Source of the DNA: a plasmid
Direction: 5' to 3' (one strand)
Length of the DNA stretch: 64,000 nucleotides
Sequence record: NZ_CP128202.1
Numbering within the stretch: position 1 is the first letter of the stretch; the number at the start of each line of letters is the position of its first letter. Of the stretch, positions 16,969 through 42,867 are shown one piece after another. Both the position numbers and the translations under genes were made by a program. The notes under the pieces are model-generated. The model was not told the origin of the DNA and made no database searches. It saw only the letters and a list, made by a program, of their open reading frames with translations.

Positions 16969-19949
16969 CTAATCATCCACTATCGGCCTTGTTATTTCGC
17001 CAATATTGGGCAATTTCCCAGTATTAGTGAAGTTATACGTTCCGCTTAAGTTGATATTTTGCCACGCAACGGGCGAAACAGCACGAGTGATACCCGCTTT
17101 CTCTTCATCTCCTCTCGCTTCAAAGTGTCCCAGAAGATGACTCAGTATCGCGGAGTTGAAGTAGATGATCGCGTTGGCAAGCAATCTTGCGCATTCATTC
17201 CAGATAGCGATTTCAGACTCGTTTTTGCCACGGAACTGATCACCATTCACCGACGCAATGGCTCGTCTAAGGAAGTGCCATGCTTCTCCCCGGTTCAGGG
17301 CACGTTGCACATACTGCCGCAAACTGGCATCGTCGATGTAGTCAAGTAAATATTGCGCTTTAACCAGTCGATTATACTCCGTCAGAGCCTGTAATATTGG
17401 GTGTCCAGAAGGGTAACCAGACAACTTTCTTACCAGCATTGCTTGTGTCGTCCGCTTTGTCTGAAGTGACAGAACAATACGCCTGATATCTTGCCATCCC
17501 GTTGTAATAACATTCGTTCTGATAGGCTTCTTTAGCGCCAGTATGGTGCTGCCTTGTTCACTTTCAGTCACATCAAACAGATCATTGATGACACTACTGA
17601 ACTGCGCGTATCGCGGTGCAAAACTGTAACCGCATAGATCCAGTAAGGCGAAGTTAACATGATTGACACCGTGTGTATCTGTCGAGAGTACGTCAGGTTT
17701 GATTTCACTGCTGTTGGATTGTAACAGGTCATAAATATAGTGTGATTCGTGCTCGTTGGAACCGATGATCCGAGCATTGAGGGCGCTGTGGTTGGCCACC
17801 AGTGTCATGGCCGTGATCCCTTTGTTGGTGCCGAAATACTTAGAGGAGTACCGGGTTTTAAAGGTTTCCAGATGGGTTTCGAATTTCTGACCATCCGCAC
17901 TGGCATGCAGCTGGTCCTCCTGAATATGGTAGTGGCGGAAGATGGGTAGCGCTGCAACCGCATTATTGATCACGTCGCTGGCGTCATGCAGCGTTTCAGG
18001 CCGGATATAGTTGGCCTGCACCGTACTCAGGTGTTCATAGCTTCGATCGGAGATCTGCGCCATGCCATACACACCACGGTGAGTGGCGTTGGCAATCAGA
18101 ATGGCCAGTAAATCATCCTGATGAGTGAACCCTTGTTTTTGTATCGGAAGTACATGAGTCAGACATTTCATGAACCCGGTTTCGCGCTCTACATACCGCA
18201 GTACATCCGCGATACCGACCGGTTGCATTCGCTTAAAAAAGGGATTGTTGACCAGAGATGTAGCGCTTTTGGTCGGCAGACGCCAGCGGGTACCGGTACG
18301 ATTTTTCATGATCACATTTCGATTGTCTCCCTCATCAATATGGAGAGCAACGTCTTTGAGTGCACTTTCCAGCCGGTGTTGTTTCTCCTGTAACAATAAC
18401 TCTGCGGGCTGTTTTAGTCTGTCCAGTGTTGATGAGGCCAGCAAGGTATCCTGCGATGTCTGGGGATCAGGTCGTCTTCCAGTGCGCGGTATTTGGTAAC
18501 ATTTGGCAAATAAATGCGTCCATTCAGTCGTGAGGTTAACTGCCGGTAGAGCAGCCATTCGTAACGTTGCGGGTTAACGTTATCCTGTTTAACCAACCAT
18601 GGGAGGTGCTTTTTCGGGATGAGCGACGTATCCATCGTCTTCAGTGGTCCACCGAATGCGATTTCCGTCTGCATCTGTTGAAGTTGGGCGACGACGGCTT
18701 CTGAGCCTTTACCGGCCTCACATTCAAGGCACAAGAACACCTGCCTTAACAGTTGCTCCAGGAGATTGCATTGTTCATCGTAATGTTGCCACTGGTACTC
18801 TTCCACGGTCCGTTTCTGTTTTTTCAGGTAAAGGCAGAGGGTCTGGATATCCCTGTCATTCATGACCTTCAATGCCTGTTGTCTGACTACTGAGAAGGGC
18901 TGATTGTCATCAATATTCTCGTCAACAAACAGGTGAAGTAGCTCTGCCGCTTTCGTGACATTGTCCGCAGCTGACTGCCAGGACAGGAACACTGCTTGTT
19001 GTGCAAAGGCGTTGGCGGCTTCCTGTTGTTTTCGGATATGGTAAACAAACCCATCCGTCAGGCGCTCCAGTGCAAGTTGCATGCGCTCTGTCAGATGACA
19101 CAGTAACCACAGGTGCTGCTGTGAGCGTTTGAAGCGCCGCACTTTACTGCCGTAGTAATCAATAAGGCCGCTGAAGTGTTGTCGATTTTTTAGCGACAGA
19201 TTGAGCCTGTCCACAACGTCATTTATTTGCGTGTGCCATGGTGCTAACCGGTGGTAAATGGCGAGCTCTTTTTTAAGCTCAGGCACGGTCAGACTTTTGG
19301 CACCACCCCTGAGATGGCTCAGACTCAGCCCGTCGTCTTTAGTAGTGATTATGTTGTCCAGAAAGACGTTAAGTTCATTACTGGTAAGTTGATTCAGTTG
19401 GAGCGTCAGGTCTTTTCTGACCTGTTGCATTGTGCGGCTTATCAGTCTTTGAAGCACGGAGTACTTAGGAATGGCAATGTTATGGCTGGCAAGGTATTCA
19501 ATGGCCGCATCAAAGAGGTGTCGAGGCTCCAGCCAGGCATGACCAATGTAAACCAGGTGGTGGCACAGAGCATTGAGGTGCTGTTTTTCATTCCACTTAT
19601 TGTAATTTAGTAGACGCAGTATCCTTGAGTAAATACGGTCACGCTGCATTTTACTGACACTGAAAGGCCTGATCCCTTTACCTCTTTGAATTTGGGAGGC
19701 AATAAACTGCATGTCGATACTGATATCACGGAAACTCGGAGCAATGATCACTGGCTTAGATTTAAAATAGCCCAGAAGCGCCACGAAATAACAACGATGT
19801 TTAGTAAGCCTGATAGTACGGCATTCGGCCTGTTCTACATCGTTTAGCGAAAAATACAAACGTTGTTCCTCAATAGAAAACTGAGGTGCTGAATACAAGT
19901 CTCGTTGTTCTGCCTGAGTCAGAATCGAGAGTTCATTACTAATTGCCAT
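16969..19949 (-). pseudogene. tnpA: Tn3-family transposase TnpA split into two overlapping ORFs
   Basis: ORF 18414-19949 (511 aa) is the N-terminal half and ORF 16969-18558 (529 aa) the C-terminal half. The C-terminus matches the Tn3-family end (LSPxxWxHINLxGxY). The 145-bp overlap in different frames implies a frameshift. Combined length about 990 aa. Confidence 0.8.
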
Positions 19950-28520: not shown

Positions 28521-29681
28521 TTAATTTTGCTTTTCTAGCACTACCGGTTCGTACACTGCTTCTTCTACCGCTTGGTTTTCTGTTTCACCAAGATCGAAGC
28601 TGAAATCGTCATCGCTGAACGCGAAGTCTGATTCTGGCTCTTCACTGGTTTCAATCGCCGTCTGTTCAGCCGAGAGAACCGCATCACTGGTCACAGTGGT
28701 TTGGTCATCAATGGTTGAATCCCCAAGATCGAAGCTGAAATCATCATCGTTGAACGCGAAGTCTGATTCTGGCTCTTTCATTGGTTCCAACGGTCCCGCA
28801 TTCTGAGGTTCGGATTGAACGCTCGCCATTGCAGGTTGATTGGTTGATGCTTCTTGCAGACTCTTCATGAGAGTGAGCAATTTTTCCTTATTTGCCATAC
28901 GAAACAGTAATCCAGACAGGATGTTGGTTTCGTCAGTGGACAGCTTACCCGCAATCGGCATTTGCTCTTCGACCTTTTTGATTTCCTGAACAAGTCGAGA
29001 AAATCGGCCATTGAGAAACGCTAACCCTTCCACCTTTTCTCGCAATCCGACTAGGCCGTTTACGTTGGTGCGGTTGGGTGCAATCGCGTCTGTTAAGCTG
29101 GATAAAAGCTTATTCGCAGTTTTCAAAATGTCGTCATCAAGAGAATTGCTTAAACCATCGATCTCTTTGCCCATGCTGATGTCCACAGACTGAACCGCAG
29201 CTTGAGCCGATTGCACTTTGAACATTGAGTAGCTTGCTGAGATTTTGCTTTTGACTTCTTGTGCCGGTGTTAATGCGGCGCGAAGTTTTTGCTCATACTC
29301 AGGATACTTTTTAACCCATTCATCTTGGATTAAATCGTGTCGAGAACAATACGCGTCAGCTTCTTTTTCGTAGTCATGAACAATTTTGCTCAATCCTAAC
29401 GCCAAAGCATCGGCCTTGGAGGACGGTATCGCATAGCCACCCATAAATCGGATGCCTACACTCAGACACAAACGCTCCGCTTGACGTTTCAGGGTATTAA
29501 ATACCTTGAGGTCTTTGGGGTCAGTTGTGTATTTCGAACCTAAAGAGATGATCTCTTTCGGCGGGGTTTCCCCACGAAGAGATAAGTCGCTTTCTGCCAA
29601 CTTTTTCCGACCTGTCCAGGTTGAAAAACGTAAGTGAACGGCGACGACATCGTTTAGAACGTTGATGTTTGAATTGCTCAT
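28521..29681 (-). CDS. hypothetical protein with C-terminal tandem acidic repeats (386 aa)
   Basis: No signal peptide. Helical N-terminal two-thirds. C-terminus has two copies of EPESDFAF[NS]DDDFSFDLG separated by a T/S/Q linker. Last gene of the CobS-like ATPase cluster. Confidence 0.55.
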   Translation of the reverse strand: MSNSNINVLNDVVAVHLRFSTWTGRKKLAESDLSLRGETPPKEIISLGSKYTTDPKDLKVFNTLKRQAERLCLSVGIRFMGGYAIPSSKADALALGLSKIVHDYEKEADAYCSRHDLIQDEWVKKYPEYEQKLRAALTPAQEVKSKISASYSMFKVQSAQAAVQSVDISMGKEIDGLSNSLDDDILKTANKLLSSLTDAIAPNRTNVNGLVGLREKVEGLAFLNGRFSRLVQEIKKVEEQMPIAGKLSTDETNILSGLLFRMANKEKLLTLMKSLQEASTNQPAMASVQSEPQNAGPLEPMKEPESDFAFNDDDFSFDLGDSTIDDQTTVTSDAVLSAEQTAIETSEEPESDFAFSDDDFSFDLGETENQAVEEAVYEPVVLEKQN

Positions 29682-29825
29682 AATGGTATCTCCAATTTTT
29701 GATATAAAAAAAAGGACATACCATTACCCGCTAGGGCAAATGATATGCCCTATGGCGGTGTAGAAATGTAGATAAGTCGCGCTAAACGCTAGGACTTATC
29801 TTTCTTTTTCAGTGCTTTTTTGCGA

Positions 29826-29936
29826 GTTGTCTGTCGCACCAAGCGTTGATTTGAGGGGAATAAAGAGCCACTAAACTGACTATTAATCCACCAGCGATAA
29901 TCACAAATAAACCATTCATGATGATCTCCTTGTTTA
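29826..29936 (-). CDS. tiny single-TM peptide (36 aa)
   Basis: MNGLFVIIAGGLIVSLVALYSPQINAWCDRQLAKKH with a strong RBS (aggagatcatcATG). Not in the supplied ORF track, which only lists ORFs of 60 aa or more. Confidence 0.3.
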
Positions 29937-29952
29937 TGTTCTATGCCAAATA

Positions 29953-30198
29953 TTACTCTTGTTTTAACTTTTTCGCAAAAACAGTGAATACAATACCTGA
30001 CACGATTAGAGCGGCCATCTTCACATCGATACCCGTTTGGATCGCATAGACGTAGGAGCCAGTGTAACCAGCTATGCCTAAATTCCCCACATGAGTACCA
30101 ATTTCCTTCCGATGGCAAATTATCCAACCTGAACATTTCTTGATTTGTGCAACAAACCAAAGATAGGCAATCACATAATCGAACATGTATAACTCCAT
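29953..30198 (-). CDS. small two-TM membrane protein (81 aa)
   Basis: Hydrophobic segments FDYVIAYLWFVAQI and MAALIVSGIVFTVFA. Lies between the ATPase gene and the acidic-repeat gene. Confidence 0.4.
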   Translation of the reverse strand: MELYMFDYVIAYLWFVAQIKKCSGWIICHRKEIGTHVGNLGIAGYTGSYVYAIQTGIDVKMAALIVSGIVFTVFAKKLKQE

Positions 30199-30256
30199 AA
30201 ATTATTATGGAGTACCTACCCACACGGGATAGATACCCCGCGTGGGTTAAAGCTGC

Positions 30257-31210
30257 TTAGTTGTTGTTAAAATCAGCACCAAACAACGCTACAGCTAATG
30301 TTTGAATAGTTTCACGTTCTTCTTCTTCCGAGCAGCGGTTTAACAATGCACGATCAAGCGCGTAGCTTAATGCATTGTTTGCTCCTTGGAATCGTTGAGT
30401 GAGTATCGCCCAACGAATTAACGTGCGAGTTGAAAAGGTGATCGATAATTCTGAGTCACCTTGCTCCCCTTTGAAGATAGCGCGAACCTTATTAGCCAGC
30501 TCAATCATCTTCTTACGCAGCACTTTAGGAATGTTCGGTGCCAGTTTTTCCAGTACCGCCATTTCCGTATCTTCGCTGGCGTAATCTTCTTTGATCACCA
30601 CAAAGCGGTCCATGAACGCCATGTTTAGGCGGTTCACTCCCATGTAGTTGCCGTCACCACCAGATCCGTTTGAGTTCGATGTTGCAATCAAACGAAATGC
30701 GGGGTGAGGTCGTACAATTTCGCCGTTAAGCTGAGTGATCACGAGTGGCGCACCTTCCAAAATGGCATTCAGGTTTGCCAATTCCGCCGGATCAACCAAG
30801 TCGATCTCGTTCAGAATCAGTACATGCCCTCCGCGCATCGCAGTCGTCAGTACGCCATCCATCCAGACAGTATTGCCGTTCACTAATGTGTATTGGCCCA
30901 CTAAGTCCATGTACTCAGTCGAACCGCCACATGTATAGCTTTGGGCTGGATAATTTAATCTGGCTAGTACCTGCTCAACCGCTGACGTTTTACCGCAGCC
31001 GGTTGGACCGGTGATCATCAAGCCATCGCCAAATGAGCAATCCAAAAACGCCACGATGTCGCGTAACGTTTCCCGACGAAAGATGTAGTCTTTCTTGGCC
31101 GGAATATTTGGATGTCCACTTGGTGCAAAACCTTCAACCGTAACGTTTGTGCCAGGAAAACCGAACACATCCATTGGGTAGCTTTGCGGAGTTAGAGTTA
31201 GAGTAGTCAT
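30257..31210 (-). CDS. CobS-like AAA+ ATPase (MoxR/AAA_5 group)
   Basis: 317 aa. Walker A GPTGCGKT, Walker B VLILNEID, and the CobS-family segment IVRPHPAFRLIATSNSNGSGGDGNYMGVNRLNMAFMDRF (compare cobaltochelatase CobS VIRPHPAFRLFATANTVGLGD, recalled from memory). No vWA (CobT-like) gene is adjacent. Confidence 0.85.
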   Translation of the reverse strand: MTTLTLTPQSYPMDVFGFPGTNVTVEGFAPSGHPNIPAKKDYIFRRETLRDIVAFLDCSFGDGLMITGPTGCGKTSAVEQVLARLNYPAQSYTCGGSTEYMDLVGQYTLVNGNTVWMDGVLTTAMRGGHVLILNEIDLVDPAELANLNAILEGAPLVITQLNGEIVRPHPAFRLIATSNSNGSGGDGNYMGVNRLNMAFMDRFVVIKEDYASEDTEMAVLEKLAPNIPKVLRKKMIELANKVRAIFKGEQGDSELSITFSTRTLIRWAILTQRFQGANNALSYALDRALLNRCSEEEERETIQTLAVALFGADFNNN

Positions 31211-31266
31211 AATGTTGTCCTTAATTAATCAATAAAAAAGGCAACTTACGACTCCCCTAGTGGGCA

Positions 31267-32500
31267 AGGGCGGGATCGAACTTTAACCACTGAAAATAAA
31301 AGACTTTATTTTATTGGGAACTTTTCAAGGTAATCACGATCTGATCATGAAGTTAAAAATATGAGAAACTCGTGCATGATTATCATTGAGCAGCTAAAAA
31401 AAGTGAAAGATACCCGTTCGCATATCAACCAAGTGTATCCTGTTATGGAAGTGGCTTTCTTGGTCATAACCGCCATGATTTGTGGTCAAAATAAGTGGAC
31501 TGATATTAAGGATTTCGGCGAAGGAAATATCGAGTGGTTGCGTGAGTATCTCCCCTACGACAATGGTCTCCCCACTCGGCATAATATTGCCGCGATAATG
31601 AGAACTGTTGTACCAGAGACGCTCTTGGAAGCGATGGTAGGCTGGGTCAATTTGCACAGAGAAAAGCATGCTCAGCCCATAATCAGCGTTGATGGGAAGG
31701 TTCTAAAAGGAGCGAAAGCAAGCAAACAAGAACACCCTCTCTATATGGTTTCGGCATTTGACGTAGATGAAGGTTTGACTCTCACACATCAACCTTGTGA
31801 CGGTAAAGGTATGGAGCTAATAGCGATAAAAAACATGCTCGACGCTTTGGATGTCAGAGGGTGCTTATTAACTGCTGATGCGCTTCATTGTCAGGTTGAA
31901 ACACTGAATAAAGTGGTTGATAAAGGTGGTGATTTCTTAGTGCAAGTCAAACTGAATCAGCCAAGTTTGTTAGCAGAGATTGATGCGCAGTTCCAAGACT
32001 ATTGGGCTTTGCCAGAAGAACAACAGGAATCGTATATCACTGAAGATAAAGGGCATGGAAGAGAAGAGATTCGTGAGGTTTACGTGCTTCCTGCCTCCTT
32101 CAGCGAAGAACTCAAAGATAAGTGGAGTGTTGTAAAAAGCATTGTTGCGGTGGTAAGAGATAGAAGCGTCAAAGGGAAAGGAAGCTATGAAACATCGTAC
32201 TACATTTGCACAGACCATTTGTCTTTAGAGTTAGCCTCAAACGCAACAAGGAAACACTGGAACATCGAGAACCAGCAGCACTGGGCTTTGGACGTTATTT
32301 TCAAAGAAGACGAGCAGCGAATTTACGCTGGGGACTCAGCATTGAATATGGCTTGTTGTCACCGATTTGTGCAGAACCTCTTCAGGAAGTCAGAAGGGAG
32401 CGTGTCTGTACCAAGGAAGATGAATAAGGCTACGTGGGACAAAGATTATAGAGCAAAAGTTCTCTTTACATCAGCTTAACAAAGTACGTTCGCGCCCTTC
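31267..32500 (+). mobile_element. ISAs1-family insertion sequence
   Basis: 1234 bp. Imperfect IRs aagggcgggatcgaac and gttcgcgcccttc. 9-bp target duplication CTAGTGGGC at 31258-31266 and 32501-32509. It sits inside one of the conserved intergenic hairpin repeats between the exonuclease and ATPase genes. Confidence 0.85.
31361..32479 (+). CDS. ISAs1-family (H-repeat-type) transposase
   Basis: 372 aa. N-terminal KVKDTRSH...GEGNIEWLREYLPYDNGLPTRHNI and a DDE region typical of the ISAs1 family. Confidence 0.9.
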   Translation: MRNSCMIIIEQLKKVKDTRSHINQVYPVMEVAFLVITAMICGQNKWTDIKDFGEGNIEWLREYLPYDNGLPTRHNIAAIMRTVVPETLLEAMVGWVNLHREKHAQPIISVDGKVLKGAKASKQEHPLYMVSAFDVDEGLTLTHQPCDGKGMELIAIKNMLDALDVRGCLLTADALHCQVETLNKVVDKGGDFLVQVKLNQPSLLAEIDAQFQDYWALPEEQQESYITEDKGHGREEIREVYVLPASFSEELKDKWSVVKSIVAVVRDRSVKGKGSYETSYYICTDHLSLELASNATRKHWNIENQQHWALDVIFKEDEQRIYAGDSALNMACCHRFVQNLFRKSEGSVSVPRKMNKATWDKDYRAKVLFTSA

Positions 32501-32576
32501 CTAGTGGGCAGCTTTCAGTTGCCCGATAGGGTTGATATTCATTGAATTAGTCAATCGCTCGACTAATTCCCTCTTC

Positions 32577-33809
32577 TTAAAAATGCATGTTTCGTACAGA
32601 TTTTTCGAAGAAATTACTTGGTGACGTTGGGGTAGCGATCATTGGAATGACCTTGGCGGTTTCTGTCGGCTCAGGCTCAGTTTTCGGTTGAGTCTCTTCC
32701 GGCATTAACGCGCTTGGCGATTTCACCGTCATCACGTTTAACGATTCGGCTTGCACCGGTTCCGTTGAGTGTTCAGGTTGAACGTTCGCATTGTCGCTGG
32801 TTTGAACAGTCGGTGTGATGGTTTCTGGCTCATCAGTTACATTGACTAAGTAGTAAGACGACCCTTTCTTCGTGTGCTTAGCTAGTAACTCTGGTGGTAT
32901 CGCCACATTGAGATCCTTCGCCAGCTCATTAAGAACCGCTTGGTAGTCCACACTGCCATTTCGTTCCACTCGCGTAGCCCGAATACCACCTTTATCGAAT
33001 GTTTTGACATCACTAGGGATTTGCTCAGTGAAGTAACTTTCAAGCTGATTCACATCGGCCTTGACCGCATTCATTTTGCGTTCAATCTCACCTAGATACG
33101 CTTTTTTCTCTTTCAGTTGCTCCACTCGGCTTAGCCAGGTTGGATCAACTTGAGAAAGTGGCGTGTCGTACACAACGGTATCGCGGCCTTCCATCATTGG
33201 CGGTGGCGTCTTAGTTTGCACCAAGTTCCAGAACCACAATGCTTTTTGTTCCGCTTTTTGGATAAACGCATCGTCACGTTTAATGTTTACCGCAATTGAA
33301 CGTTTACCGCGCAAGTAAAAAAACAAACGACCTTGAGGGCTTCCGGCGCAGTTAAGTTGCCACTGCACTTGGGCAGCGTACATCTTGAACGTTGGCGCTT
33401 TGGATTGAAGTTCAACAAGTTCGTTGTAGATCTTTTCACAAGGACATTTGATTTCGAGCACTTCCCGAATGCCTTTAGAGATGGCTTGTAGGCCATCCAA
33501 AGACGCTTTGAACAGTGGATTATGGTCTGCTTCTACGCACACTGGCATATACACAATGCCGTATTGATCTTCCACGGCGCTTCGCGCTTCCGGCTCTTGC
33601 TCGACACCACGTTGAACGTGAAAGTTTTTAGACAGGTCATCTGGTTGTTTATAACCGACTAACTCTGCCCACAGTCCGTATGGGGTTTGATAAGGTGACA
33701 GGCCCATAATCACAGGGATCATGGAGGCTGTAATGCCCGTTTTCCGCCACGCAAACCATTTTTCACTACGTTGTACTAAGTCAACAATAGGCATAAGTGC
33801 CTCCTTCAT
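32577..33809 (-). CDS. YqaJ-type viral recombinase-domain exonuclease (lambda-Exo-like) with C-terminal extension
   Basis: N-terminal 300 aa carry the YqaJ pattern (RSEKWFAWRKTGITASMIPVIMGLSPYQTPYGLW ... ASLDGLQ ... EIKCP). An additional low-complexity C-terminal tail of about 100 aa. Confidence 0.8.
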   Translation of the reverse strand: MKEALMPIVDLVQRSEKWFAWRKTGITASMIPVIMGLSPYQTPYGLWAELVGYKQPDDLSKNFHVQRGVEQEPEARSAVEDQYGIVYMPVCVEADHNPLFKASLDGLQAISKGIREVLEIKCPCEKIYNELVELQSKAPTFKMYAAQVQWQLNCAGSPQGRLFFYLRGKRSIAVNIKRDDAFIQKAEQKALWFWNLVQTKTPPPMMEGRDTVVYDTPLSQVDPTWLSRVEQLKEKKAYLGEIERKMNAVKADVNQLESYFTEQIPSDVKTFDKGGIRATRVERNGSVDYQAVLNELAKDLNVAIPPELLAKHTKKGSSYYLVNVTDEPETITPTVQTSDNANVQPEHSTEPVQAESLNVMTVKSPSALMPEETQPKTEPEPTETAKVIPMIATPTSPSNFFEKSVRNMHF

Positions 33810-33825
33810 ATTGTGTTCAATAAAA

Positions 33826-33867
33826 AGGGCGCACTATCCCCTACGGGCAGTGTCGCCCGTTAGGGTA
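33826..33867. repeat. exemplar of a conserved intergenic hairpin-repeat family in the 28-42 kb island
   Basis: atcccctacgggcagtgtcgcccgttagggta. Related copies at 29718-29755 (tacccgctagggcaaatgatatgccctatggcgg), 30217-30250 (tacccacacgggatagataccccgcgtgggtta), 31250-31266 plus 32501-32540 (split by ISAs1: ctcccctagtgggc / agctttcagttgcccgataggg), 41199-41236 (tacccctacgggctttgtgtcccgtttgggg) and 41712-41748 (ggcccgtaagggatagtttatccccgttgggc). Confidence 0.6.
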
Positions 33868-33891
33868 GATGGATAATTAGGGTACTTTCCT

Positions 33892-34245
33892 TTATAGAGA
33901 AACGGTCACGCAGTATTCACGCGAGCCATTGTGGTTCTGGTAATCCGAGCTCACCGTTTTTAATTGCGCCACTGTGTGCTGACTGCTCAACGTCACCTGT
34001 TCGGTGAGAACATCTTGGGTTTGGGCTTGGCCCTTGCCTTCGGTTGTGATGCTTTTCAGTTCCGTTCTGGCATTCACGGTGGCCCCAAGCTCATGAGAGA
34101 GTTGCCCCTTTGCCAATGCCTTTGCGGTGATTTCATCAACCACCGGATTGCCAGTGTCCGGCACACAGGCTGAGCCGGTGATCGTCTTTGAGGCCGCGAA
34201 CTCACTCACCACCAGTAAGCTGACCAACAACAGATATTTATTCAT
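33892..34245 (-). CDS. small secreted protein (117 aa from MNKYLL)
   Basis: Signal peptide MNKYLLLVSLLVVSEFAAS. Its ATG overlaps the stop of the upstream gene (tATGAATAA), indicating translational coupling. Confidence 0.5.
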   Translation of the reverse strand: MNKYLLLVSLLVVSEFAASKTITGSACVPDTGNPVVDEITAKALAKGQLSHELGATVNARTELKSITTEGKGQAQTQDVLTEQVTLSSQHTVAQLKTVSSDYQNHNGSREYCVTVSL

Positions 34246-35437
34246 ATTTCCACTCGCTCGATTCTTTTTCCGGCACCACCACCACACGCGCATCCAGTGA
34301 ACTGATGCCCTGCAGTTCCGCTTGAGTCACGTTCTTGATGATGACCGGATTGCGATAACGGGAACGATGGTCAGCATCTAACATGCGGTTATCTTTGGAG
34401 TCATTGGAGAATTGAAGCGCGAAGTTGCTCCCTGCGAAGAAATCGCTTCGGCCACTGATTGGCAAATACCCCACTTTGTTCGCCGCTTTAATCTCAATAG
34501 CGACTGTATGACCGGACAGGTAATCCAGCAATTCGCCGCTGTAGGGCTTTAATTGTTTATTGCCACGGTTATTGTACGAAGGGAACTCAATGGTGTAGGG
34601 CGGTGCATGTCGGTCTTTCTCTTTCAGTACCAGATAATTCGACATGACGCTGCGCACCGGTTTCATCGGGACATTCCAACGCACCGGAACGTGAATGTTG
34701 TACGTTCCGTCAGTGTTCTTTTTGAACTCTGGATTGCCAAGCGAAATCTTTGTTTGGGTTTTTAAGTAGCCAAATACATCTCGGTTCACGGCCTCTTTCG
34801 CCAGGTCGTAGTCTTGTCCATCCAGCATCGCCAGTTGGAAAAGAGTACCCTGCTCGAACACTTTCTTTGTGGCCGCACGATTGCTATCGAGCTTTGCCAA
34901 CACCGCGTCACGCTCAGCCAGCAAATCCGTTCGTGCGCCCTCGTTAATCTTGCGGGTTAACTCAAGCACTTCGCCGCGCAGACGTTGATTGTCTTTCTCA
35001 AGTGCGTCCATCTTGGCCTTGCGTTCTGGATCGCTTTTCAGCTTTGCCAACCCATCACGAATGGACGCTTTGGACAGCTTTATTTTAGCGTAGGTATCGA
35101 GCACGAGACTGCCATTGGCTCCTACTGAACGCTTATCTTCACGGCTTAACACCTCAAGAAACCCTGCCGTTAACACGCGCACTTGTTGTTTGGTGATGGT
35201 TTGGTTTGACACCTGCAGCACCGATTCAATGTAGGTTCCGGCGTAGTCGGAAGCCGATTTCTTGGCTTGCTCTAGCGTGATTTCTCTGGCACTGGTTAAT
35301 GTGTCGTTATCACCAAGCACATAACGTTCCGTCACGTTCAGCGTGATGTGGTCCTGATTCTCGGAATCCAGCGATACGGCGGCATGAGTAGAGAAAGACA
35401 GCCCAACCAGTAGGGCCAGTAATGTTCGATTCATCAT
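34238..35437 (-). CDS. secreted coiled-coil protein (399 aa)
   Basis: Signal peptide MMNRTLLALLVGLSFSTHAAVS. Central coiled-coil (KAKMDALEKDNQRLRGEVLELTRK). Its N-terminal domain is paralogous to 27971-28430. Confidence 0.6.
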   Translation of the reverse strand: MMNRTLLALLVGLSFSTHAAVSLDSENQDHITLNVTERYVLGDNDTLTSAREITLEQAKKSASDYAGTYIESVLQVSNQTITKQQVRVLTAGFLEVLSREDKRSVGANGSLVLDTYAKIKLSKASIRDGLAKLKSDPERKAKMDALEKDNQRLRGEVLELTRKINEGARTDLLAERDAVLAKLDSNRAATKKVFEQGTLFQLAMLDGQDYDLAKEAVNRDVFGYLKTQTKISLGNPEFKKNTDGTYNIHVPVRWNVPMKPVRSVMSNYLVLKEKDRHAPPYTIEFPSYNNRGNKQLKPYSGELLDYLSGHTVAIEIKAANKVGYLPISGRSDFFAGSNFALQFSNDSKDNRMLDADHRSRYRNPVIIKNVTQAELQGISSLDARVVVVPEKESSEWKYE

Positions 35438-35448
35438 TTCGTCCTTTG

Positions 35449-35832
35449 TTAGTCAGCCCGAAACCAGTGAGAATCCAACCCCATGCTGGCGCACGCGGTA
35501 CAAATCAACTCGTTTCCGTTGTTCGTGATGATTATCTCCAAATCTGGCCGGACAACGCCGACGATATCTCGGTTACGCATCGTGACCACGATTTTGTTCC
35601 CCCTGACCAGAAACGGCTTATCCATGCTGCCAAATTTGCTTGAGAGTGTTGCGGTATCGTGAGTGAATTGAAGCGTAGCGTTTTGTTTCGACTCAGAGTA
35701 TTTGCCCTTGATAAATTCTTTATTGAAGATGTCTGACACATCAGCAGGAGGATAATGAGCGGTATCAGAATCACACCCTGATACCGCCAATGCGCTCACC
35801 AAACACCATTTACTCAGGCTTGATGAACTCAT
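35449..35832 (-). CDS. small lipoprotein (about 127 aa, start at MSSSSLSKWCLVSALAVSGC)
   Basis: Lipobox LAVSGC. Overlaps the end of the upstream gene. The supplied ORF 35449-35985 starts earlier, in a region shared with the 295-aa gene. Confidence 0.5.
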   Translation of the reverse strand: MSSSSLSKWCLVSALAVSGCDSDTAHYPPADVSDIFNKEFIKGKYSESKQNATLQFTHDTATLSSKFGSMDKPFLVRGNKIVVTMRNRDIVGVVRPDLEIIITNNGNELICTACASMGLDSHWFRAD

Positions 35833-36697
35833 ATTTTTTGCCTTGCGTGTAAATAGCGGGTAAGACTTCCGCATAGTCGGTATATATTTTATTGTCGTAT
35901 TCAGTTTGAGGCATTGATGATGTGTAGACATAAAACCCTTTGGGTAAATGCTGAGTAATGCCTGTATAGAATTCCGTAGTATCAATATTCTTGCCGCTCT
36001 CGACCGTGAATATTAAATGCGTTGGGATCATTATTAATCTATCTTTTATAGTGGATTTTTTCACCCCATAGGTATAATAGCTTCCCGCATTTCCCTCTAG
36101 CGATTGGTCGGTTTTAGTTAGCACCCCCTCCTTGGGCGTATTTATTTGAAAGCCCCCCATAAGGTAGTCCACTCCACCATGATTGAGGTAAAAAAGCTTG
36201 CCTCGCTCTCCCACGGGTTGCAATTTCACTTCCCCATATTTGCTTAATGCTTCAAGTGTCGCGGCATTGATTGTATCGATGATGTATTGCTGCGCATCCA
36301 GTTCCGAAGAAAACGGGGTAGCGTCTACTTCAATGATCCACTCTGTAGCGCCAGCAGCGTGATCGCGGCTGGCAATGTTGGCGACTGCCCCCCCTGCTAT
36401 ATCAATCGCACCCGTGAGATCCAGTGTCAGGAGTTTTAAGCCTCCAATTAACAAAGAGGGATTACCGCCACTTCTTGATCGGCCTACGGCTTGAGTAATT
36501 TCGGCTTCCTCTTCTCTGGTGAAGTCGCGGAGTGGGCTATCATTGCGCATCAGGATAGTTTGATTGGCTACGTTATAGGCGTAACTGTGTTCGTTGCTGA
36601 ATGGCATCGGTTCAACAGGCTTTGGGGTCGATTTACAACCCACTAAGGTCAAACCTAATCCAGCGGCAATTAAAATGGGTTTTATGTATCCTTTCAT
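35810..36697 (-). CDS. lipoprotein (295 aa)
   Basis: MKGYIKPILIAAGLGLTLVGC is a signal peptide plus lipobox. No recognisable domain. Confidence 0.6.
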   Translation of the reverse strand: MKGYIKPILIAAGLGLTLVGCKSTPKPVEPMPFSNEHSYAYNVANQTILMRNDSPLRDFTREEEAEITQAVGRSRSGGNPSLLIGGLKLLTLDLTGAIDIAGGAVANIASRDHAAGATEWIIEVDATPFSSELDAQQYIIDTINAATLEALSKYGEVKLQPVGERGKLFYLNHGGVDYLMGGFQINTPKEGVLTKTDQSLEGNAGSYYTYGVKKSTIKDRLIMIPTHLIFTVESGKNIDTTEFYTGITQHLPKGFYVYTSSMPQTEYDNKIYTDYAEVLPAIYTQGKKYEFIKPE

Positions 36698-36763
36698 TTT
36701 CTCGTTCTCATTTTTTGCTGATATAACACTACGGTATCACCGATTATTTTTTTCCAAAATGCA

Positions 36764-39700
36764 TCATTGGCTGCGACTCCACGCATCCTCATACGCATCG
36801 CGGCGAACTTCGTCAGCATCGATATTTTCCATACGCTCTCGATTGGCCTCTAGGACATTATTTCTGTCTGTTCCGCCTTGCTGAGTGTTCAAATTGGACC
36901 CTTTGCCCGTGAGGGAATCAATATTCACATTCACCATGTCGGTGTAATTCCCCGTACTGATGAGTATGCCAATCCATTCATCCAGATTCACTTCATCCCA
37001 ATCGACTTTATCCAAATCTTGAATACCGACACCTGTGCAGTTCGGTTTTTTCGCGGTTCCCCAATTTAAATTCATCTGTGACTGAGCATAAATTTGCTCC
37101 ATCATGATACGAGATAATGGAGAATCAAATACGCAGTAAGACTGGCGTTTTTCAATACAGGAACCAAGCACCTCTGTCTTACAATAGGAGCCAATTTTAT
37201 GCGTCGATAACAGCTCTCGTTTCATAGCTAAATCCAGCTCTTCCTCTTCGCATTCGTAGATAACATTGACCAGCAAATTAAACACGACATACGCCAGATA
37301 TGCGTAATACACATACATCAAGGCTTGTCCGGCGGCGGCCATTTCAGCACTTGCACCAAGAACCGCTTCACCAGCCGCACTTGTACCCACTTCTTGGAAA
37401 AACATTTTCGCTACCTCTGGACCAAAGGTGTCTATCAAAAACTGGTTGGTGTATTGCATCATTTGTTGTGCCACTGCGCTCATGAGGCCCTTGTTTGCAC
37501 CATCTGTTCCCATTTGCGCCACAATATCCGCCGGTGATATAAATTCACCTTGTACCGCCGACCAAGCAGATTGAGCCGTGGCACTTCCCCACGTTGATGC
37601 GGTTTCCCACACACCAGGATAGTTTTCCAACCCCATGACCTGACCCGTTAGCGCATCCATCTGCATCATTTTGGTCGTGAGCGAAATGTAATCAGCAAGC
37701 GTGACCGCTACAGGGGATTCACAGCAATTCTGCATCCCCCCCACCGCAATTTTGCATTCGGACGCAGTACCTTTGAAGAGTTCGCACGTAACGTTGGTAT
37801 CTCCCCCGCTACTGGTTGTGACCGACGAGGTGGACATGGTACTCATTGACATCGGCTGAGCAGTAGAACTTGCTGACGCAAGGCCCATGAGCTGCTGTCT
37901 GCCCACTGTCGTCAACGCAATGTTGTTCTGTTGTTCTTCAGCCATAGAAAGGAATTGCTCGGCCACGTACTGTTGCATCGTTTCTTGCGTCAGTTTGGCT
38001 TCCTCTGACCCCTGCAACTCGCTGCTTGCGTTCGCTTTGGGAATTAACGTATCCAGCATGTGCTCGAACGGCGAAAGAACCATTGCAATCACTTCTTGTG
38101 TTTGGGTCGGGTTTAGTGGTTCATTGTTCAATTCGAACTGTGATCGAACATTAGCCAACGGGGAAATACTACTGGATTCGCAACGGTTTTCTTCTGCATT
38201 CCAAATAGGGTAACTTGTAGGACAGCTAATGCTAGCTGGTTCTTCGCGTATGCAACGTCCAGTTGTAGCATTGTAATATGTACCTTCCTCGCTACACACC
38301 CATTCAGGAGGACTAACAGAGCCAGCTTTGCACTTACCAGTAGCACTATCATAAGAGCCTATCGCGCACACTGGATCCTTTGTAGTGTTGACATTAGTAC
38401 AAATCTCATAGGTATAGTTCCAATCTTGAGTCATAATACACCAGCCAGCAAAATGGCCAGTTCCATTATAATTACTTAACGTTCCTCTGCCTCTATTTAT
38501 GATATTTGAGCTAGGACCCCAACTAGAGTAATTTAACGTTCTACCGCAACCAGCACTACTACCAGAGTAATATTTCCACTGTTCTCGTTGTTTACCTCTC
38601 CAAAACGCACCACTACCTAAATAAGCGTTGCTTGGTTTAATCGTCGCTGGATCATCACCACAAAAATCATAGTAAGTGTTGTGGCAAAGACCATCGAGAA
38701 CCCTCGTTTCAGTCCTTGGTGTATTAAGCCCTGAATGCTCACCATTACTAATGACAAAGGCATCTTTATCGAAATAACAACCTTCCTTAATACCTACACA
38801 TTGCCCATTACTAAGTGTTAAACCACTGTCGCATTGAGCATCCGTATATGTAATACCGTTGCAAAGCCCAGTTGCAGCATCGTAAGTTTCATTTGCATTA
38901 TTGCATTTGGGTACTGCCGGAATATCAAGCAAACACTTATCATCCAAAACACTCCAAGGATCACCACCTTCAATCAACGGCACACCTTCAGGACACGTTG
39001 GTGTCGGCGGTATTTCACAATACCCCGTCTTGGGATTGAGCGTGTGATCAGGACTTGGGCAACCACTCGGAATGACTGGTGATTCTGCATTGGTACAGAC
39101 CTCATAAAAGGTATCAGTCGCCAGTTTTTTCTTTGCCTCACCACATGTATAAGTCACCCCATTTTTCTTCACGGGTATGCAGGTAGGAACGCTGGCATCA
39201 TCCACCACCACTTGATTTCCCACCAGCACTTGAATGCCATTGCGCGAGCTCGCGGCATAAAAATCGTTGTCAGAATAGGTACAGCCTGTTGGTTTCAAAC
39301 ATTGGTTAGTTTGTTTGTTGTAAACGAACCCGTCAGCACAACTTGGAACGGGAATGTATTGGTCCGGCGGTGCATCTGCATCGTATGGGGATTCGGGAAT
39401 GCCTTGGCAGGTCATGTCAGCTTTTGCGTATTTCAGCATTTCCAGATAGGCATTCACTTTGCCAAAATCTTCATTCGCGCCATCACGCGCAGGGCTGTAA
39501 CAATTCTCGCCAACACACTGAAGTTTGCCGTTACAGCGCAATACCTGCTCTTCTTTCGGCTGTCCCGTTGAAGCCGTGAAGCCACAATCGTAGGTGTCTT
39601 CTTGGACATAACAGTGGCCGGAGCTGCCTTCGGCCCCTTCCACACACTCACTCTTGATATAAGAACACGTAGGGTTCTCTTCGTATTTTTTACACTGATT

Positions 39701-41185
39701 GCGATCTACTGTGTCATTATCAAAACAGCGCTCTACCCCATTGAGATCCTTTGAGCAAAATTGGCCTTCGTTAAACCCACAGTTGGAAGTCACTTCCACT
39801 TTTCGACAAAACGGACTGATGCCTAAACTAGCAAATGGGTTCGATTTGAAATTAGACTCACAGACTTTCACCCCGTTCATCACCGTACAACCGGCTGCAT
39901 CAAGGCTTGGCATGTCGGTACACTGAAACGAGCCGGTACAGTAACCGTCATCGATCTGTTTTTTTACTTGGAAAGCTTTGTCGATGTTTTCTTGCGTTGT
40001 CCAATTGTCACCGTACACGAGATCGTTCATGTTGTAGTACACCAACAAAGAGGAATAGCCTTCCCCTTCCCCCGCTACAGAGGTGCGAGTTTTAAACGTT
40101 ATCTCACCATATTCAGGCACACTGGTGAATGAACTGGTGACGTTAATGTTAGGTCGGGTGTCCCAGGAAGTGCTTAACTCACATTTCGTCCCGACTTCGG
40201 GCGGAAATTCACCGTTCGGGCCGTTGTAGATTTTCACCCCGTTCAAATACACTTGGTGATAATCATCGAACTTCGAGCGATCCAGAACGGCATAAGTAAT
40301 TTTATCCGGCTTCAACACTTCAACGGACATGCTCTCTTCATAAATCGTACACCAGCCTGGCCAGTAATTGTTGCCTACTGTGCCGATCCAAACCTGTGTG
40401 CAGCCATTTCCGCAAGAAACAAGGTTCACCGGACCGCTTTTATGTCTCAAAATGCCGACTTTGTATTCGTGGCTGATGGTAAATGTCTCTTCGACAACCG
40501 GTAGTTTTTCGCACGTTTCGTATTTCGGCACATGGTAATCCTTGCCTGACGAAATGAGCTCAGTCGTGAGTGTGCAGTTGGCAAAGTCTTTGGTAATGTC
40601 GGTGAGGTTGTCGAGTACCTGATCGGTGTTCTTCCACATCGGATCGTTGCTTAAATCCGGCTTTTGAGTAGCAAAAGACCTCTTCAGTAGATGATAAGCT
40701 CGTTCACCGCTTGAATCGGCGGTTTCGAGTGTCTTTTGTTCGTATTTATCTTTCGCTAACTGGCCTTGGATAAGGGTTTTGGAATCACTGCCATAGGTGT
40801 CGGTATCAGCGGGGATGTAATCATTGTCGCGCTGACCCGTGAGCTCCTGTTTCGTCATAATGGCTTTGCCATTGACCATCAGCGAACCATCTGACGAAAA
40901 GGTTGGATTAGAGTGTGCGTTTTTGACAGGTTGTTTAACCTGTGTTTTTTGCACGTTTGCATTGGGTTGTTTCGCCAAAACCTTAAAGGTGAAGCGAATC
41001 AAGCAGAACGCAAGATAGGCAACCAACGAAACCGTTGCCAGTAGGATAAATGCTGCCACCATCCGAGCTGGATTCTCTGCTTGGTAAGCAACAAAGGCAC
41101 CAATAAAACACAAAGCAAAAACCGTGAAGTTTTTGAATGATGTTTTTGGTAGAAGTGTTGATAGGGTTTGAGTTGAAGTGTTCAT
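36764..41185 (-). CDS. giant cysteine-rich membrane-anchored protein with a TraN-like C-terminal region (1473 aa)
   Basis: Two N-terminal TM helices, then more than 1000 aa rich in Cys/Gly/Asn/Thr. The C-terminal segment KIGSYCKTEVLGSCIEKRQSYCVFDSPLSRIMMEQIYAQSQMNLNWGTAKKPNCTGVGIQDLDKVDWDEVNLDEW resembles the conserved C-terminus of F-type TraN mating-pair stabilisation proteins (recalled from memory, not checked). Confidence 0.5.
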   Translation of the reverse strand: MNTSTQTLSTLLPKTSFKNFTVFALCFIGAFVAYQAENPARMVAAFILLATVSLVAYLAFCLIRFTFKVLAKQPNANVQKTQVKQPVKNAHSNPTFSSDGSLMVNGKAIMTKQELTGQRDNDYIPADTDTYGSDSKTLIQGQLAKDKYEQKTLETADSSGERAYHLLKRSFATQKPDLSNDPMWKNTDQVLDNLTDITKDFANCTLTTELISSGKDYHVPKYETCEKLPVVEETFTISHEYKVGILRHKSGPVNLVSCGNGCTQVWIGTVGNNYWPGWCTIYEESMSVEVLKPDKITYAVLDRSKFDDYHQVYLNGVKIYNGPNGEFPPEVGTKCELSTSWDTRPNINVTSSFTSVPEYGEITFKTRTSVAGEGEGYSSLLVYYNMNDLVYGDNWTTQENIDKAFQVKKQIDDGYCTGSFQCTDMPSLDAAGCTVMNGVKVCESNFKSNPFASLGISPFCRKVEVTSNCGFNEGQFCSKDLNGVERCFDNDTVDRNQCKKYEENPTCSYIKSECVEGAEGSSGHCYVQEDTYDCGFTASTGQPKEEQVLRCNGKLQCVGENCYSPARDGANEDFGKVNAYLEMLKYAKADMTCQGIPESPYDADAPPDQYIPVPSCADGFVYNKQTNQCLKPTGCTYSDNDFYAASSRNGIQVLVGNQVVVDDASVPTCIPVKKNGVTYTCGEAKKKLATDTFYEVCTNAESPVIPSGCPSPDHTLNPKTGYCEIPPTPTCPEGVPLIEGGDPWSVLDDKCLLDIPAVPKCNNANETYDAATGLCNGITYTDAQCDSGLTLSNGQCVGIKEGCYFDKDAFVISNGEHSGLNTPRTETRVLDGLCHNTYYDFCGDDPATIKPSNAYLGSGAFWRGKQREQWKYYSGSSAGCGRTLNYSSWGPSSNIINRGRGTLSNYNGTGHFAGWCIMTQDWNYTYEICTNVNTTKDPVCAIGSYDSATGKCKAGSVSPPEWVCSEEGTYYNATTGRCIREEPASISCPTSYPIWNAEENRCESSSISPLANVRSQFELNNEPLNPTQTQEVIAMVLSPFEHMLDTLIPKANASSELQGSEEAKLTQETMQQYVAEQFLSMAEEQQNNIALTTVGRQQLMGLASASSTAQPMSMSTMSTSSVTTSSGGDTNVTCELFKGTASECKIAVGGMQNCCESPVAVTLADYISLTTKMMQMDALTGQVMGLENYPGVWETASTWGSATAQSAWSAVQGEFISPADIVAQMGTDGANKGLMSAVAQQMMQYTNQFLIDTFGPEVAKMFFQEVGTSAAGEAVLGASAEMAAAGQALMYVYYAYLAYVVFNLLVNVIYECEEEELDLAMKRELLSTHKIGSYCKTEVLGSCIEKRQSYCVFDSPLSRIMMEQIYAQSQMNLNWGTAKKPNCTGVGIQDLDKVDWDEVNLDEWIGILISTGNYTDMVNVNIDSLTGKGSNLNTQQGGTDRNNVLEANRERMENIDADEVRRDAYEDAWSRSQ

Positions 41186-41279
41186 AATGTGTCTCCATTA
41201 GACAAAAAAATGGGACACATTACCCCTACGGGCTTTGTGTCCCGTTTGGGGTTTGAATTAATATCGACCTATTTATCTA

Positions 41280-41396
41280 GATGATACTTTTTGCTGTAGT
41301 GCTTGACGACTTGCCATCCGACAATACCAAGTATTGTCACAAAGCCAATACACATACCAAGATAGATTAGTGCGCCAGTAGTCATATGATTCTCCT
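41280..41396 (-). CDS. tiny TM peptide (38 aa)
   Basis: MTTGALIYLGMCIGFVTILGIVGWQVVKHYSKKYHLDK. Not in the supplied ORF track, which only lists ORFs of 60 aa or more. Confidence 0.25.
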
Positions 41397-41435
41397 TTTC
41401 GATAAGTATAACAAAGTGGCGTTTTTTAAACCAAA

Positions 41436-41669
41436 TTATTCCTCTCCATCGCTGTTTTGAACCATATCACCTATCACCAAGCCCACATCAATAATCACAT
41501 AGGCGAGCATAAATGCTATACCGACTGCAATTGTGATGACGTTCATTGGGATATTGTCTGCTGTGCTAACTAAGTTGATTCCTCCTGTGACCATTATACC
41601 TGCGCCTATTGCTAGGAACACATTGGCAAACGCTCGAAGAAATGCTTTTTTTATAATATTCATACGCAT
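41436..41669 (-). CDS. small two-TM membrane protein (77 aa)
   Basis: Hydrophobic segments ANVFLAIGAGIMVTG and VITIAVGIAFMLAYVIIDV. Confidence 0.35.
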   Translation of the reverse strand: MRMNIIKKAFLRAFANVFLAIGAGIMVTGGINLVSTADNIPMNVITIAVGIAFMLAYVIIDVGLVIGDMVQNSDGEE

Positions 41670-41813
41670 TACCTCATTTGTTATTTTGAATATTTAATAA
41701 CAGAGATAAACGTATGGCCCGTAAGGGATAGTTTATCCCCGTTGGGCTGAACACATCGTCAAAGTAAAAACTTATCGGATGGTAAAGAGTGACCGTTATT
41801 GGTCAATTGAAAA

Positions 41814-42867
41814 GGCCTTGTTGCTTAAATCAATGGAACTAAATCAGGAAGCTACGATCTGATCGGCTACACCCATCAATCGTCGTAGCCTCATGCCTAA
41901 ACCTCGTTACAAAACAACTAACTGGAAGCAGTACAATAAATCCTTAATCAACCGTGGTTCTCTGGCCTTTTGGATTGATGAGGAAGCGATAGCTGAGTGG
42001 AAGCAAAACAAACAAGGCAAGCGTGGTAGATCTCGCCGATTCAGCGACTTAGCCATTACTACCGCACTGATGGTGAAACGCGTTTTCTCTATGCCCTTGA
42101 GAGCGCTGCAAGGTTTTCTAGACTCCGTATTTAAGCTGGCTAACATCCCGCTTGTTTGCCCGCACTACACCTGTATAAGCCGCCGAGCTAAGGAAGTTGA
42201 AGTTTCATTTAAAACCAAAACCAGAGGAGCAATACAACATCTGGCCATTGATGCCACTGGCCTCAAGGTTTATGGCGAAGGTGAATGGAAGGTCAAGAAG
42301 CATGGAACTGATGGGAAGCGAAGAGTCTGGCGTAAGCTGCATATCGCGGTAGATACAAGCACCCACGAAATAGTCGCAGCAGAGCTGAGCTTATCTAACG
42401 TAACTGATGCCGAAGTGCTCCCCAACTTACTCAAGCAAACACGTCGTAAAATCATTGAGATATCAGGCGATGGCGCTTATGACACAAGGAATTGCCATGA
42501 TGCCATACGGATCAAGCGAGCTGTTCCGCTCATCCCGCCAAGAGAAGGAGCAGCCTTCTGGGAACAAGGGCATCCTCGTAACTTAGCGGTAGGTTGCCAG
42601 AAGCTCTATGGCTCCAACAAGAAGTGGAAAAAGCGGTATGGCTATCATAAGCGCTCTCTATCAGAGACCGCAATGTACCGAGTAAAACAGCTGCTAGGTG
42701 GGAAATTAAGCCTGAGGAACTACAACGCTCAAGTTGGCGAGACTTACGCTATGATTAAAGCCCTGAATAAGCTTACAGGGCTTGGTATGCCTGAAACACA
42801 GTATATCGGTTAAGAATTAAGCACAATGGGGCAGGCATGGCTTATCTATGAATTAAGCAACAAAGCC
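41814..42867 (+). mobile_element. IS5-family (IS903-group) insertion sequence, copy B
   Basis: 1054 bp. IRs ggccttgttgcttaaatc and gcttaattcatagataagcc...caacaaagcc-type ends. No flanking 9-bp duplication. Confidence 0.9.
41893..42813 (+). CDS. IS5-family transposase (306 aa)
   Basis: About 96% identical to copy A, and about 99% to copy C. Confidence 0.95.
   Translation: MPKPRYKTTNWKQYNKSLINRGSLAFWIDEEAIAEWKQNKQGKRGRSRRFSDLAITTALMVKRVFSMPLRALQGFLDSVFKLANIPLVCPHYTCISRRAKEVEVSFKTKTRGAIQHLAIDATGLKVYGEGEWKVKKHGTDGKRRVWRKLHIAVDTSTHEIVAAELSLSNVTDAEVLPNLLKQTRRKIIEISGDGAYDTRNCHDAIRIKRAVPLIPPREGAAFWEQGHPRNLAVGCQKLYGSNKKWKKRYGYHKRSLSETAMYRVKQLLGGKLSLRNYNAQVGETYAMIKALNKLTGLGMPETQYIG

Follow-up and report, generated by a model that had tools for sequence, protein, structure and literature searches.

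Recurrent intergenic hairpins in the traN-traF accessory block of a Vibrio furnissii plasmid as probable components of translational attenuator leaders

A 64-kb stretch of the plasmid record NZ_CP128202.1 (the window, whose numbering is used for all positions unless another element is named) carries a family of short, imperfectly palindromic intergenic repeats. The window is 99% identical to the Vibrio furnissii plasmid pVFBJ05 and is a V. furnissii plasmid with a remnant of the SXT/R391-IncA/C backbone. With a probability of about 0.7, the repeats are the 5′ parts of cis-acting mRNA leader modules that attenuate the translation of genes in the accessory block of this backbone. [quoted passage not shown] The architecture of the modules, their fixed spacing to the start codon, the covariation of both of their pairings, the bias toward the sense strand, and the restriction to this single block were established in this analysis, for which 80 modules were collected from seven elements (IncC, ICE R997, pVPH1, and Vibrio plasmids).

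The palindrome, termed H1, makes up just the opening part of a longer module when the coding (minus) strand is read. From 5′ to 3′, the module consists of an A-rich, G-poor flank, H1, a segment termed b′, a short A/U-rich spacer that is often a U-run in the Vibrio clade, the Shine-Dalgarno (SD) sequence, and the AUG; the whole leader measures about 70 bases. H1 is a stable, GC-clamped hairpin with the arrangement AACCC - 1-6 nt - (C)GGG - loop - CCC(G) - 1-6 nt - GGGG, and is directly preceded by AA and the G-poor flank (A at -1 in 67/75 copies and at -2 in 61/75). The segment b′ has 10-15 nt, ends in CC(C), and is complementary to two different partners, namely the SD/AUG region of the next gene (pairing H3) and the inner 5′ arm and loop of H1 (pairing H2). 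Minimum-free-energy (MFE) folding predicts H1 together with the SD/AUG-sequestering hairpin H3 in all six window copies. For the leader of the DUF3150 gene (s1 in Table 1), the hairpin between b′ and the translation initiation region (TIR) was independently recovered in a repeat search as the inverted repeat I6 (29681-29726, 83% complementary).

All copies in the window lie between 29.7 and 41.8 kb. An earlier sequence-only reading of this DNA had listed seven intergenic sites; repeats are present at the claimed places, with coordinates off by a few bases, and the copies number six when the one split by an insertion sequence (IS) is counted once (Table 1). The reality of the family, as claimed there, is borne out by the pattern CCC.{2,4}GGG.{4,12}CCC.{2,4}GGG, which occurs at four window sites versus 0.09 expected in shuffles (maximum 2) and matches both strands at each site because the motif is quasi-palindromic. 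A looser pattern also recovers the copy at 29727, along with one unrelated match at 9915 and nothing further in the window. The half-site CCCTASGGGC proposed in the same reading is a good fit to three copies, but it is not significant alone (5 matches in the window vs 2.4 expected). Two other statements had to be revised. The absence of a T-tract is true of the plus strand only, as runs of T5-T8 are found on the minus strand in 4/6 copies, right after the 11-14-nt segment 3′ of H1. Likewise, the copies do not occur indifferently upstream and downstream of genes; they sit 5′ of the start of the next gene. The distance from the H1 end to the next minus-strand start codon is 32-54 nt for the window copies, whose downstream genes encode DUF3150, the AAA ATPase, the YqaJ exonuclease, TraN, and two small open reading frames (ORFs). 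Among the 80 collected copies, 79 have a distance of 25-48 nt (median 33), whereas the distance from the upstream stop codon to H1 is far more variable (mostly 0-35 nt, median ~14).

The two pairings of b′ covary. For the b:b′ duplex (H2), the mean energy is -14.3 kcal/mol between cognate segments versus -8.2 kcal/mol between non-cognate ones, and for the b′:TIR duplex the corresponding values are -13.7 and -8.0 kcal/mol. None of 5000 permutations reached the observed mean in either case, and the cognate partner had a median rank of 2-3 among 79 segments. The advantage of cognate pairings is about 6 kcal/mol. The pairs adjoining the invariant GGG/CCC core of H1 are also paired more often than in column shuffles, as judged from a crude alignment. 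The folding is biased toward the sense strand, with an MFE of -31.4 kcal/mol versus -28.6 kcal/mol for the antisense strand (p=8e-7) and 139 G-U pairs versus 91 at balanced base composition. Single copies illustrate this bias: the stem of s2 (30219) is perfect only on the minus strand, by means of a G-U pair whose counterpart on the plus strand is an A-C mismatch, and the H2 pairing of s1 contains G-U pairs on the minus-strand RNA that would be A-C on the plus strand.

These permutation tests, together with a small ungapped covariance-model seed, replaced a MAFFT alignment of 64 H1 sequences analyzed with RNAalifold, which returned no consensus structure because the lengths of linkers and loops vary. 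In a covariance-model scan over 415 kb, of the kind proposed in the sequence-only reading, the matches of the small H1-only model are almost confined to these gene blocks. This model lacks strand specificity and did not recover s1 and s6, which are divergent, or s3, which is split. In a search of Rfam 15, the window had no match that reached the gathering score, and the matches at E<=5 for its block and that of IncC were all at chance level. Therefore, the module is not a known riboswitch or leader.

The repeat had been regarded as a peculiarity of this island; it proved instead to be a widespread feature of the backbone. Each of the 80 collected modules lies within the traN-traF accessory block and on the strand of its genes. 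In the IncC plasmid NZ_OW443149, the same architecture is found in most of the 60-95-nt spacers of the ssb-bet-exo-DUF3150-VWA operons. All 19 strict matches in this 139-kb plasmid fall on the gene strand within 27 kb (84.2-110.8 kb), with 1.5 expected per strand. This distribution, and the occurrence of the same family across genera, upholds the earlier view that the repeat is specific to the element rather than a host repetitive extragenic palindrome (REP). A loose H1-like pattern precedes 21/39 IncC block genes versus 0/77 other genes. The leaders of block genes have an MFE of -31.9 kcal/mol versus -19.6 kcal/mol for the others (p=2.6e-13), and the predicted probability of being unpaired at positions -10..-1 is 0.27-0.35, compared with 0.46-0.48 in control genes. 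The family pattern and the H1 covariance model also match the IncC bet and exo leaders, and the leader at 84788 is a family member ahead of the homologue of the window's AAA_5/CbbQ_C ATPase gene. In ICE R997, a family member fills the 79-nt ssb-bet spacer (17568-17596 of locus L017); the H1 covariance model scores 42.4 bits at 17564-17597, a sequence that is one of the model's own seeds. Three Vibrio plasmids with the module encode an ATPase 68-70% identical to that of the window. A profile search of genome contigs with an alignment of this ATPase gave six irrelevant loci that matched the generic Walker-A pattern.

The module also occurs in pPniHBP1_1 of Pseudomonas nitroreducens, a 425-kb megaplasmid of the MPF_I/MOBP type with five full modules (14606, 16539, 17559, 18641, and 26453 of locus L019) that adjoin toprim, PD-(D/E)XK nuclease, and DUF3150-adjacent genes. 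Its conjugation system is unrelated, yet it has the same ATPase, DUF3150, and toprim genes; therefore, the RNA module travels with the gene block and not with the MOBH/MPF_F conjugation system. The gene content between modules varies among elements in a cassette-like manner. In the sister plasmid NZ_CP040989 (locus L002), further minus-strand modules (9306 and 14868), without counterpart in the window, precede small genes downstream of the DUF3150 gene and near traN; module-flanked genes are thus gained and lost between near-identical plasmids. The same block is present in Providencia pPROV278-1 (15.5-27 kb of locus L018) and Proteus pJPM24 (0.8-8.9 kb of locus L020), where the CCC/GGG hairpin H1 is absent. 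In these relatives, nearly every spacer contains a simple hairpin with a T-run, followed before the SD by a repeated AT-rich motif (TTTTAAATCTATTAA in Providencia, TTTAAATAGGT in Proteus), which may represent a per-gene leader that is analogous but unrelated.

When 2.9 million viral contigs were scanned, only scattered single matches appeared, apart from one clustered IncC fragment, and a phage origin of the family was rejected. The fragment, IMGVR_UViG_2744054965_000003 (locus L055, 4548 bp, viral collection), contains four modules and matches the IncC hde leaders (vcrx089-ssb-bet-exo); it is probably plasmid DNA rather than a virus.

Attenuation would be brought about by the default fold. 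With H1 and H3 formed, as in the predicted ground state, the ribosome-binding site would be hidden and the initiation of each gene attenuated. If H1 were opened, or its 5′ arm masked, the GGGG-containing top of H1 could act as a mimic of the SD sequence (an anti-anti-SD), capture b′, and thereby release the real ribosome-binding site. H1 might be opened by a ribosome that terminates translation of the preceding cistron, by RNase cleavage, or by an RNA-binding factor. A rigid H-type pseudoknot that combines the full H1 with H2 was rejected on the grounds of loop length, an argument that does not extend to the outer CCC:GGGG stem alone.

Several points weigh against this explanation. In an equilibrium model, masking the 5′ arm of H1 raises the probability that the SD/AUG region is unpaired from 0.32 to only 0.37-0.42. 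Given this modest release, support for the switch step is weak, and H3 may do no more than damp translation constitutively. Attenuation by the window copies is itself a structure prediction, and location is what would identify the family with the attenuator reported upstream of bet (see below). Because the CCC/GGG cores of H1 are invariant and quasi-palindromic, H1 cannot distinguish a function in RNA from one in DNA, and the H1-only covariance model gives some copies a higher score on the non-coding strand. Given the variable distance between the stop codon and H1, terminating ribosomes would get as far as H1 in some copies but not in others. Lastly, many of the 80 copies are orthologues among related plasmids and not independent; the statistics therefore overstate independence, although the effect sizes are large.

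It is conceivable, albeit rather unlikely, that the modules form a post-transcriptional regulon in which one trans-acting factor recognizes the AACCC..GGGG hairpin and unlocks the whole block at once. Such a factor might be a block protein encoded by the element, a host factor, or an RNase, acting, for example, when the element has just arrived in a new cell; the top of H1, as an SD mimic, would then pull the anti-SD segment off each ribosome-binding site. If true, this would constitute a second regulatory layer beneath AcaCD/SetCD, common to SXT, IncC, pAQU-type plasmids, and some Pseudomonas megaplasmids.

The sequence-only reading had named four candidate functions: a protein-binding site, an RNA-processing or attenuator element, a REP-like sequence, and a recombination hot spot. 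Of these, the RNA attenuator is favored by the covariation with the ribosome-binding site, the sense-strand folding, and the location in the bet spacer. Among the competing explanations at the RNA level, it is improbable that the modules are transcription attenuators or intrinsic terminators, in which H2 or a small GGGG..CCC hairpin followed by the U-run would stop transcription between cistrons, with H1 as the antiterminator. Such a role would fit the T8, T6, T5, and T7 runs immediately after b′ in s1, s3, s4, and s5, two of which (s4 and s5) are flagged by a minus-strand terminator scan, as well as the T4+ runs that start 8-15 nt after H1 in 28/44 copies of the Vibrio-plasmid clade and the strong covariation of the b:b′ pairing. 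However, a U-run is found in only 2/20 IncC, 1/9 pVPH1, and 2/6 R997 copies and is thus not a defining feature; in AT-rich plasmids it may just represent the loop of H3, which is A/U-rich. No copy has a U-run directly after H1 itself; where one occurs, it comes after the alternative hairpins (H2 or GGGG..CCC). The loop of H2 would measure 14-20 nt, and since H1 forms first and is more stable, H2 remains outside the MFE structure unless H1 is blocked, which counts against a terminator. Moreover, the IncC hde genes are co-transcribed across several modules, as seen by reverse transcription PCR (PMC7498323). Similar doubt applies to a role in mRNA processing or stability, with H1 as a 5′ protective hairpin or an RNase III/E site that yields stable monocistronic units and with any effect on translation being secondary. 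One very stable hairpin per intercistronic spacer, placed after an A/U-rich, G-poor single-stranded stretch that resembles the preference of RNase E, would suit this role, as would the internal loop or bulge in the middle of H1 and the retention of a hairpin in most spacers of the distant, H1-less Providencia and Proteus plasmids. It leaves unexplained, however, why b′ covaries with both the SD/AUG region and the H1 top. H1 is, in addition, anchored to the downstream start codon and not to the upstream stop, and its 9-13 bp are short for RNase III. Processing and translational roles are not mutually exclusive.

The quasi-palindromic nature of H1 and its invariant cores would also be expected of a function in DNA, such as microhomologies or palindromes for single-strand annealing by Bet/Exo, pause sites for Exo, or operators of a dimeric protein. 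Roy et al. (2020) reported conserved IncC intergenic repeats as substrates of Bet/Exo repair, with identity down to 7 nt, and suggested that palindromes within them could pause Exo (PMC7498323). Sequence sharing between copies points in the same direction: s4 and s5, linked by the direct repeat D2, have GCCCGTAGGGG in common as well as a 48-nt stretch of 71% identity, a pair of IncC leaders is near-identical across >60 nt, and the gene content between modules varies like that of cassettes. Nevertheless, this role is very unlikely to be the primary one, as it predicts neither the 25-48-nt distance to the start codon nor the exclusive gene-strand orientation of the full module, and neither the covariation with the module's own SD/AUG nor the excess of G-U pairs on the sense strand. 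Recombinational use may follow incidentally from the repetition of the leader, and activity as a recombination hot spot is possible as a secondary property of the repeats. Hardly any credence can be given to ordinary host REP elements, bacterial interspersed mosaic elements (BIMEs), or chance GC-rich hairpins. The copies do resemble these in being short, imperfect, GC-rich palindromes in intergenic DNA. In scans of the plasmid sequences, however, they are found in just 12 kb of the 64-kb window and in 27 kb of the 139-kb IncC plasmid, they travel with the block across Vibrio, Proteus, Enterobacterales, and Pseudomonas elements, and they occur far above shuffle expectation, with only the scattered matches mentioned above among viral contigs. 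The REP-like function is thus unsupported. The idea of a leading-region or single-stranded-DNA promoter was also rejected; the block enters late or last because transfer starts at oriT and proceeds through mobI (PMC7449626).

Parts of such a system have been described before. According to a review, a strong translational attenuator lies upstream of the SXT bet gene and is also present, although untested, in IncA/C plasmids (PMC4542580). Lowered translation of the downstream gene is known from experiment only for this SXT site, as relayed by the review. The module resembles this attenuator in belonging to the same backbone block, in being placed immediately 5′ of a block gene's SD, in the R997 ssb-bet spacer copy that fits both the family pattern and the H1 covariance model, and in the predicted effect, which is high transcription with poor translation. 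Unlike the single site at bet in the literature, the module precedes six genes in the window and 21/39 IncC block genes, is also found at traN and the DUF3150 gene, and has a third covarying partner, the H1 top. Roy et al. predicted a structure that hides the vcrx089 ribosome-binding site in the IncC hde operon (PMC7498323). The product of vcrx089 is a homologue of the window's AAA_5/CbbQ_C ATPase (49% identity), whose gene is led by s3 in the window and by the family member at 84788 in IncC. The repeats rptI-IV of the same study are, like the module, intergenic, partly palindromic, and conserved among IncC plasmids, but they were treated as DNA substrates, with an RNA structure for one gene only; they are likened to H1 here by their description.

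Comparable logic is known from the ermC/cat leaders and the tetQ leader of CTnDOT, in which alternative hairpins exist and the segment that masks the SD/AUG can itself be captured by another one upstream. Those leaders, however, are found once in an operon and need a short leader peptide as well as drug-stalled ribosomes, whereas the module has no evident leader ORF, is repeated before many cistrons, and contains the conserved AACCC..GGGG. REP/BIME elements and the intercistronic RNase III sites of T7 are also repeated hairpins between the cistrons of polycistronic transcripts, some with an internal loop. REPs differ in being host-genome-wide 3′ stabilizers and the T7 sites in having stems of ~20 bp or more, and neither covaries with a downstream ribosome-binding site. 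In the literature compared, which did not include the primary report on the bet attenuator, no account was found that treats the module as a family placed ahead of many genes. The copies are best filed as new members of the known, barely characterized kind of SXT/IncA/C translational attenuator leader. The family-wide picture obtained here takes in the many genes served per element, the tripartite complementarity, the restriction to a single block, the occurrence on a Pseudomonas megaplasmid, and the absence from Rfam.

SXT/R391 ICEs and IncC plasmids are important carriers of multidrug resistance, and the leader-bearing block (vcrx089-type ATPase, ssb, bet, exo) encodes the survival of restriction and CRISPR in new hosts. 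If a common RNA module gates most genes of this block, it would provide a shared control point for their translation and explain the poor expression of highly transcribed genes such as bet and exo. The module also offers a simple signature, absent from Rfam, for annotating such blocks and correcting start-codon calls. In addition, the repeated module supplies short direct repeats for Bet/Exo repair and reshuffling.

Table 1. Leader modules, their parts, and the insertion that divides module s3, in window coordinates.
Feature	Position	Strand	Parts	Evidence
Module s1, leader of DUF3150 gene (28521-29681)	29679..29758	-	H1 29727-29758; b′ 29714-29726; T8 29706-29713; SD+ATG 29679-29693	Folds; Pfam DUF3150
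Module s2, leader of 77-aa membrane ORF (29953-30186)	30184..30246	-	H1 30219-30246; b′ 30207-30218; SD GGAG+ATG 30184-30198; no T-run	Covariance-model match, 37.8 bits, minus strand
Module s3, promoter-distal remnant, attached to AAA_5/CbbQ_C ATPase gene (30257-31210)	31208..31265	-	H1 3′ arm GCCCACTAGGGG 31254-31265; b′ 31240-31253; T6 31234-31239; SD+ATG 31208-31222	Pfam
ISAs1-family insertion	31266..32500	+	Transposase 31361-32479	pVFBJ05 annotation; inverted ends AAGGGCG..
Module s3, upstream remnant	32501..32531	-	H1 5′ arm and loop CCCTATCGGGCAACTGAAAGCT 32510-32531; duplicated 3′-arm copy 32501-32509	
Module s4, leader of YqaJ-type exonuclease gene (32577-33809)	33792..33865	-	H1 33838-33865; b′ 33827-33837; T5 33822-33826; SD+ATG 33792-33807; SD-associated ATG 33792-33794	Terminator-like site 33842-33825
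Module s5, leader of traN (36764-41185)	41183..41251	-	H1 41223-41251; b′ 41211-41222; T7 41204-41210; SD+ATG 41183-41199	Pfam TraN; terminator-like site 41226-41212
Module s6, divergent copy, leader of 77-aa ORF (41436-41669)	41661..41746	-	H1 41718-41746; b′ 41696-41717, forming a long hairpin with SD GAGG and start region 41661-41685	

Module s3 is split by the ISAs1-family element, which spans ~31266-32500 and is bounded by a target duplication of 9-10 bp, (C)CTAGTGGGC, at 31257-31265 and 32501-32509. The insertion into one copy with a 9-bp duplication, as inferred in the sequence-only reading, is confirmed with a shift of one base. The intact counterpart, CCCCTAGTGGGCAGCTTTCAGTTGCCCGATAGGG, is found in the sister plasmid NZ_CP040989 at 10728-10761 of locus L002. 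A single IS insertion does not show that the element is targeted to the repeats.

The genes between 27 and 41.7 kb are on the minus strand throughout and include those for MobI(A/C), DUF3150, the AAA_5/CbbQ_C ATPase, the YqaJ exonuclease, and TraN, as assigned with Pfam. Between traN and the YqaJ exonuclease gene, the region 33892-36697 (minus strand) holds four overlapping or tightly packed ORFs of 133, 399, 128, and 295 aa. None of the four has a Pfam match, and none has a leader module or hairpin upstream. They are missing from the sister plasmid NZ_CP040989, where another gene stands at that place, and the region looks like a variable insert in the backbone. Two unannotated minus-strand ORFs of ~38-40 codons (41264-41385 and 29800-29922) encode small hydrophobic peptides and have good SDs; they are flanked by module-bearing genes and are themselves without an upstream H1. 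An IS5-family element (41893-42813) lies ~150 bp upstream of module s6 in the minus-strand sense, and its insertion may have severed the original promoter or a gene ahead of the operon. Near its 3′ end, the DUF3150 gene contains a 73-nt direct repeat (28585-28657 and 28720-28792, 86% identity, spacing 135 nt), through which the acidic peptide EPESDFAF.DDDFSFDLG is duplicated.

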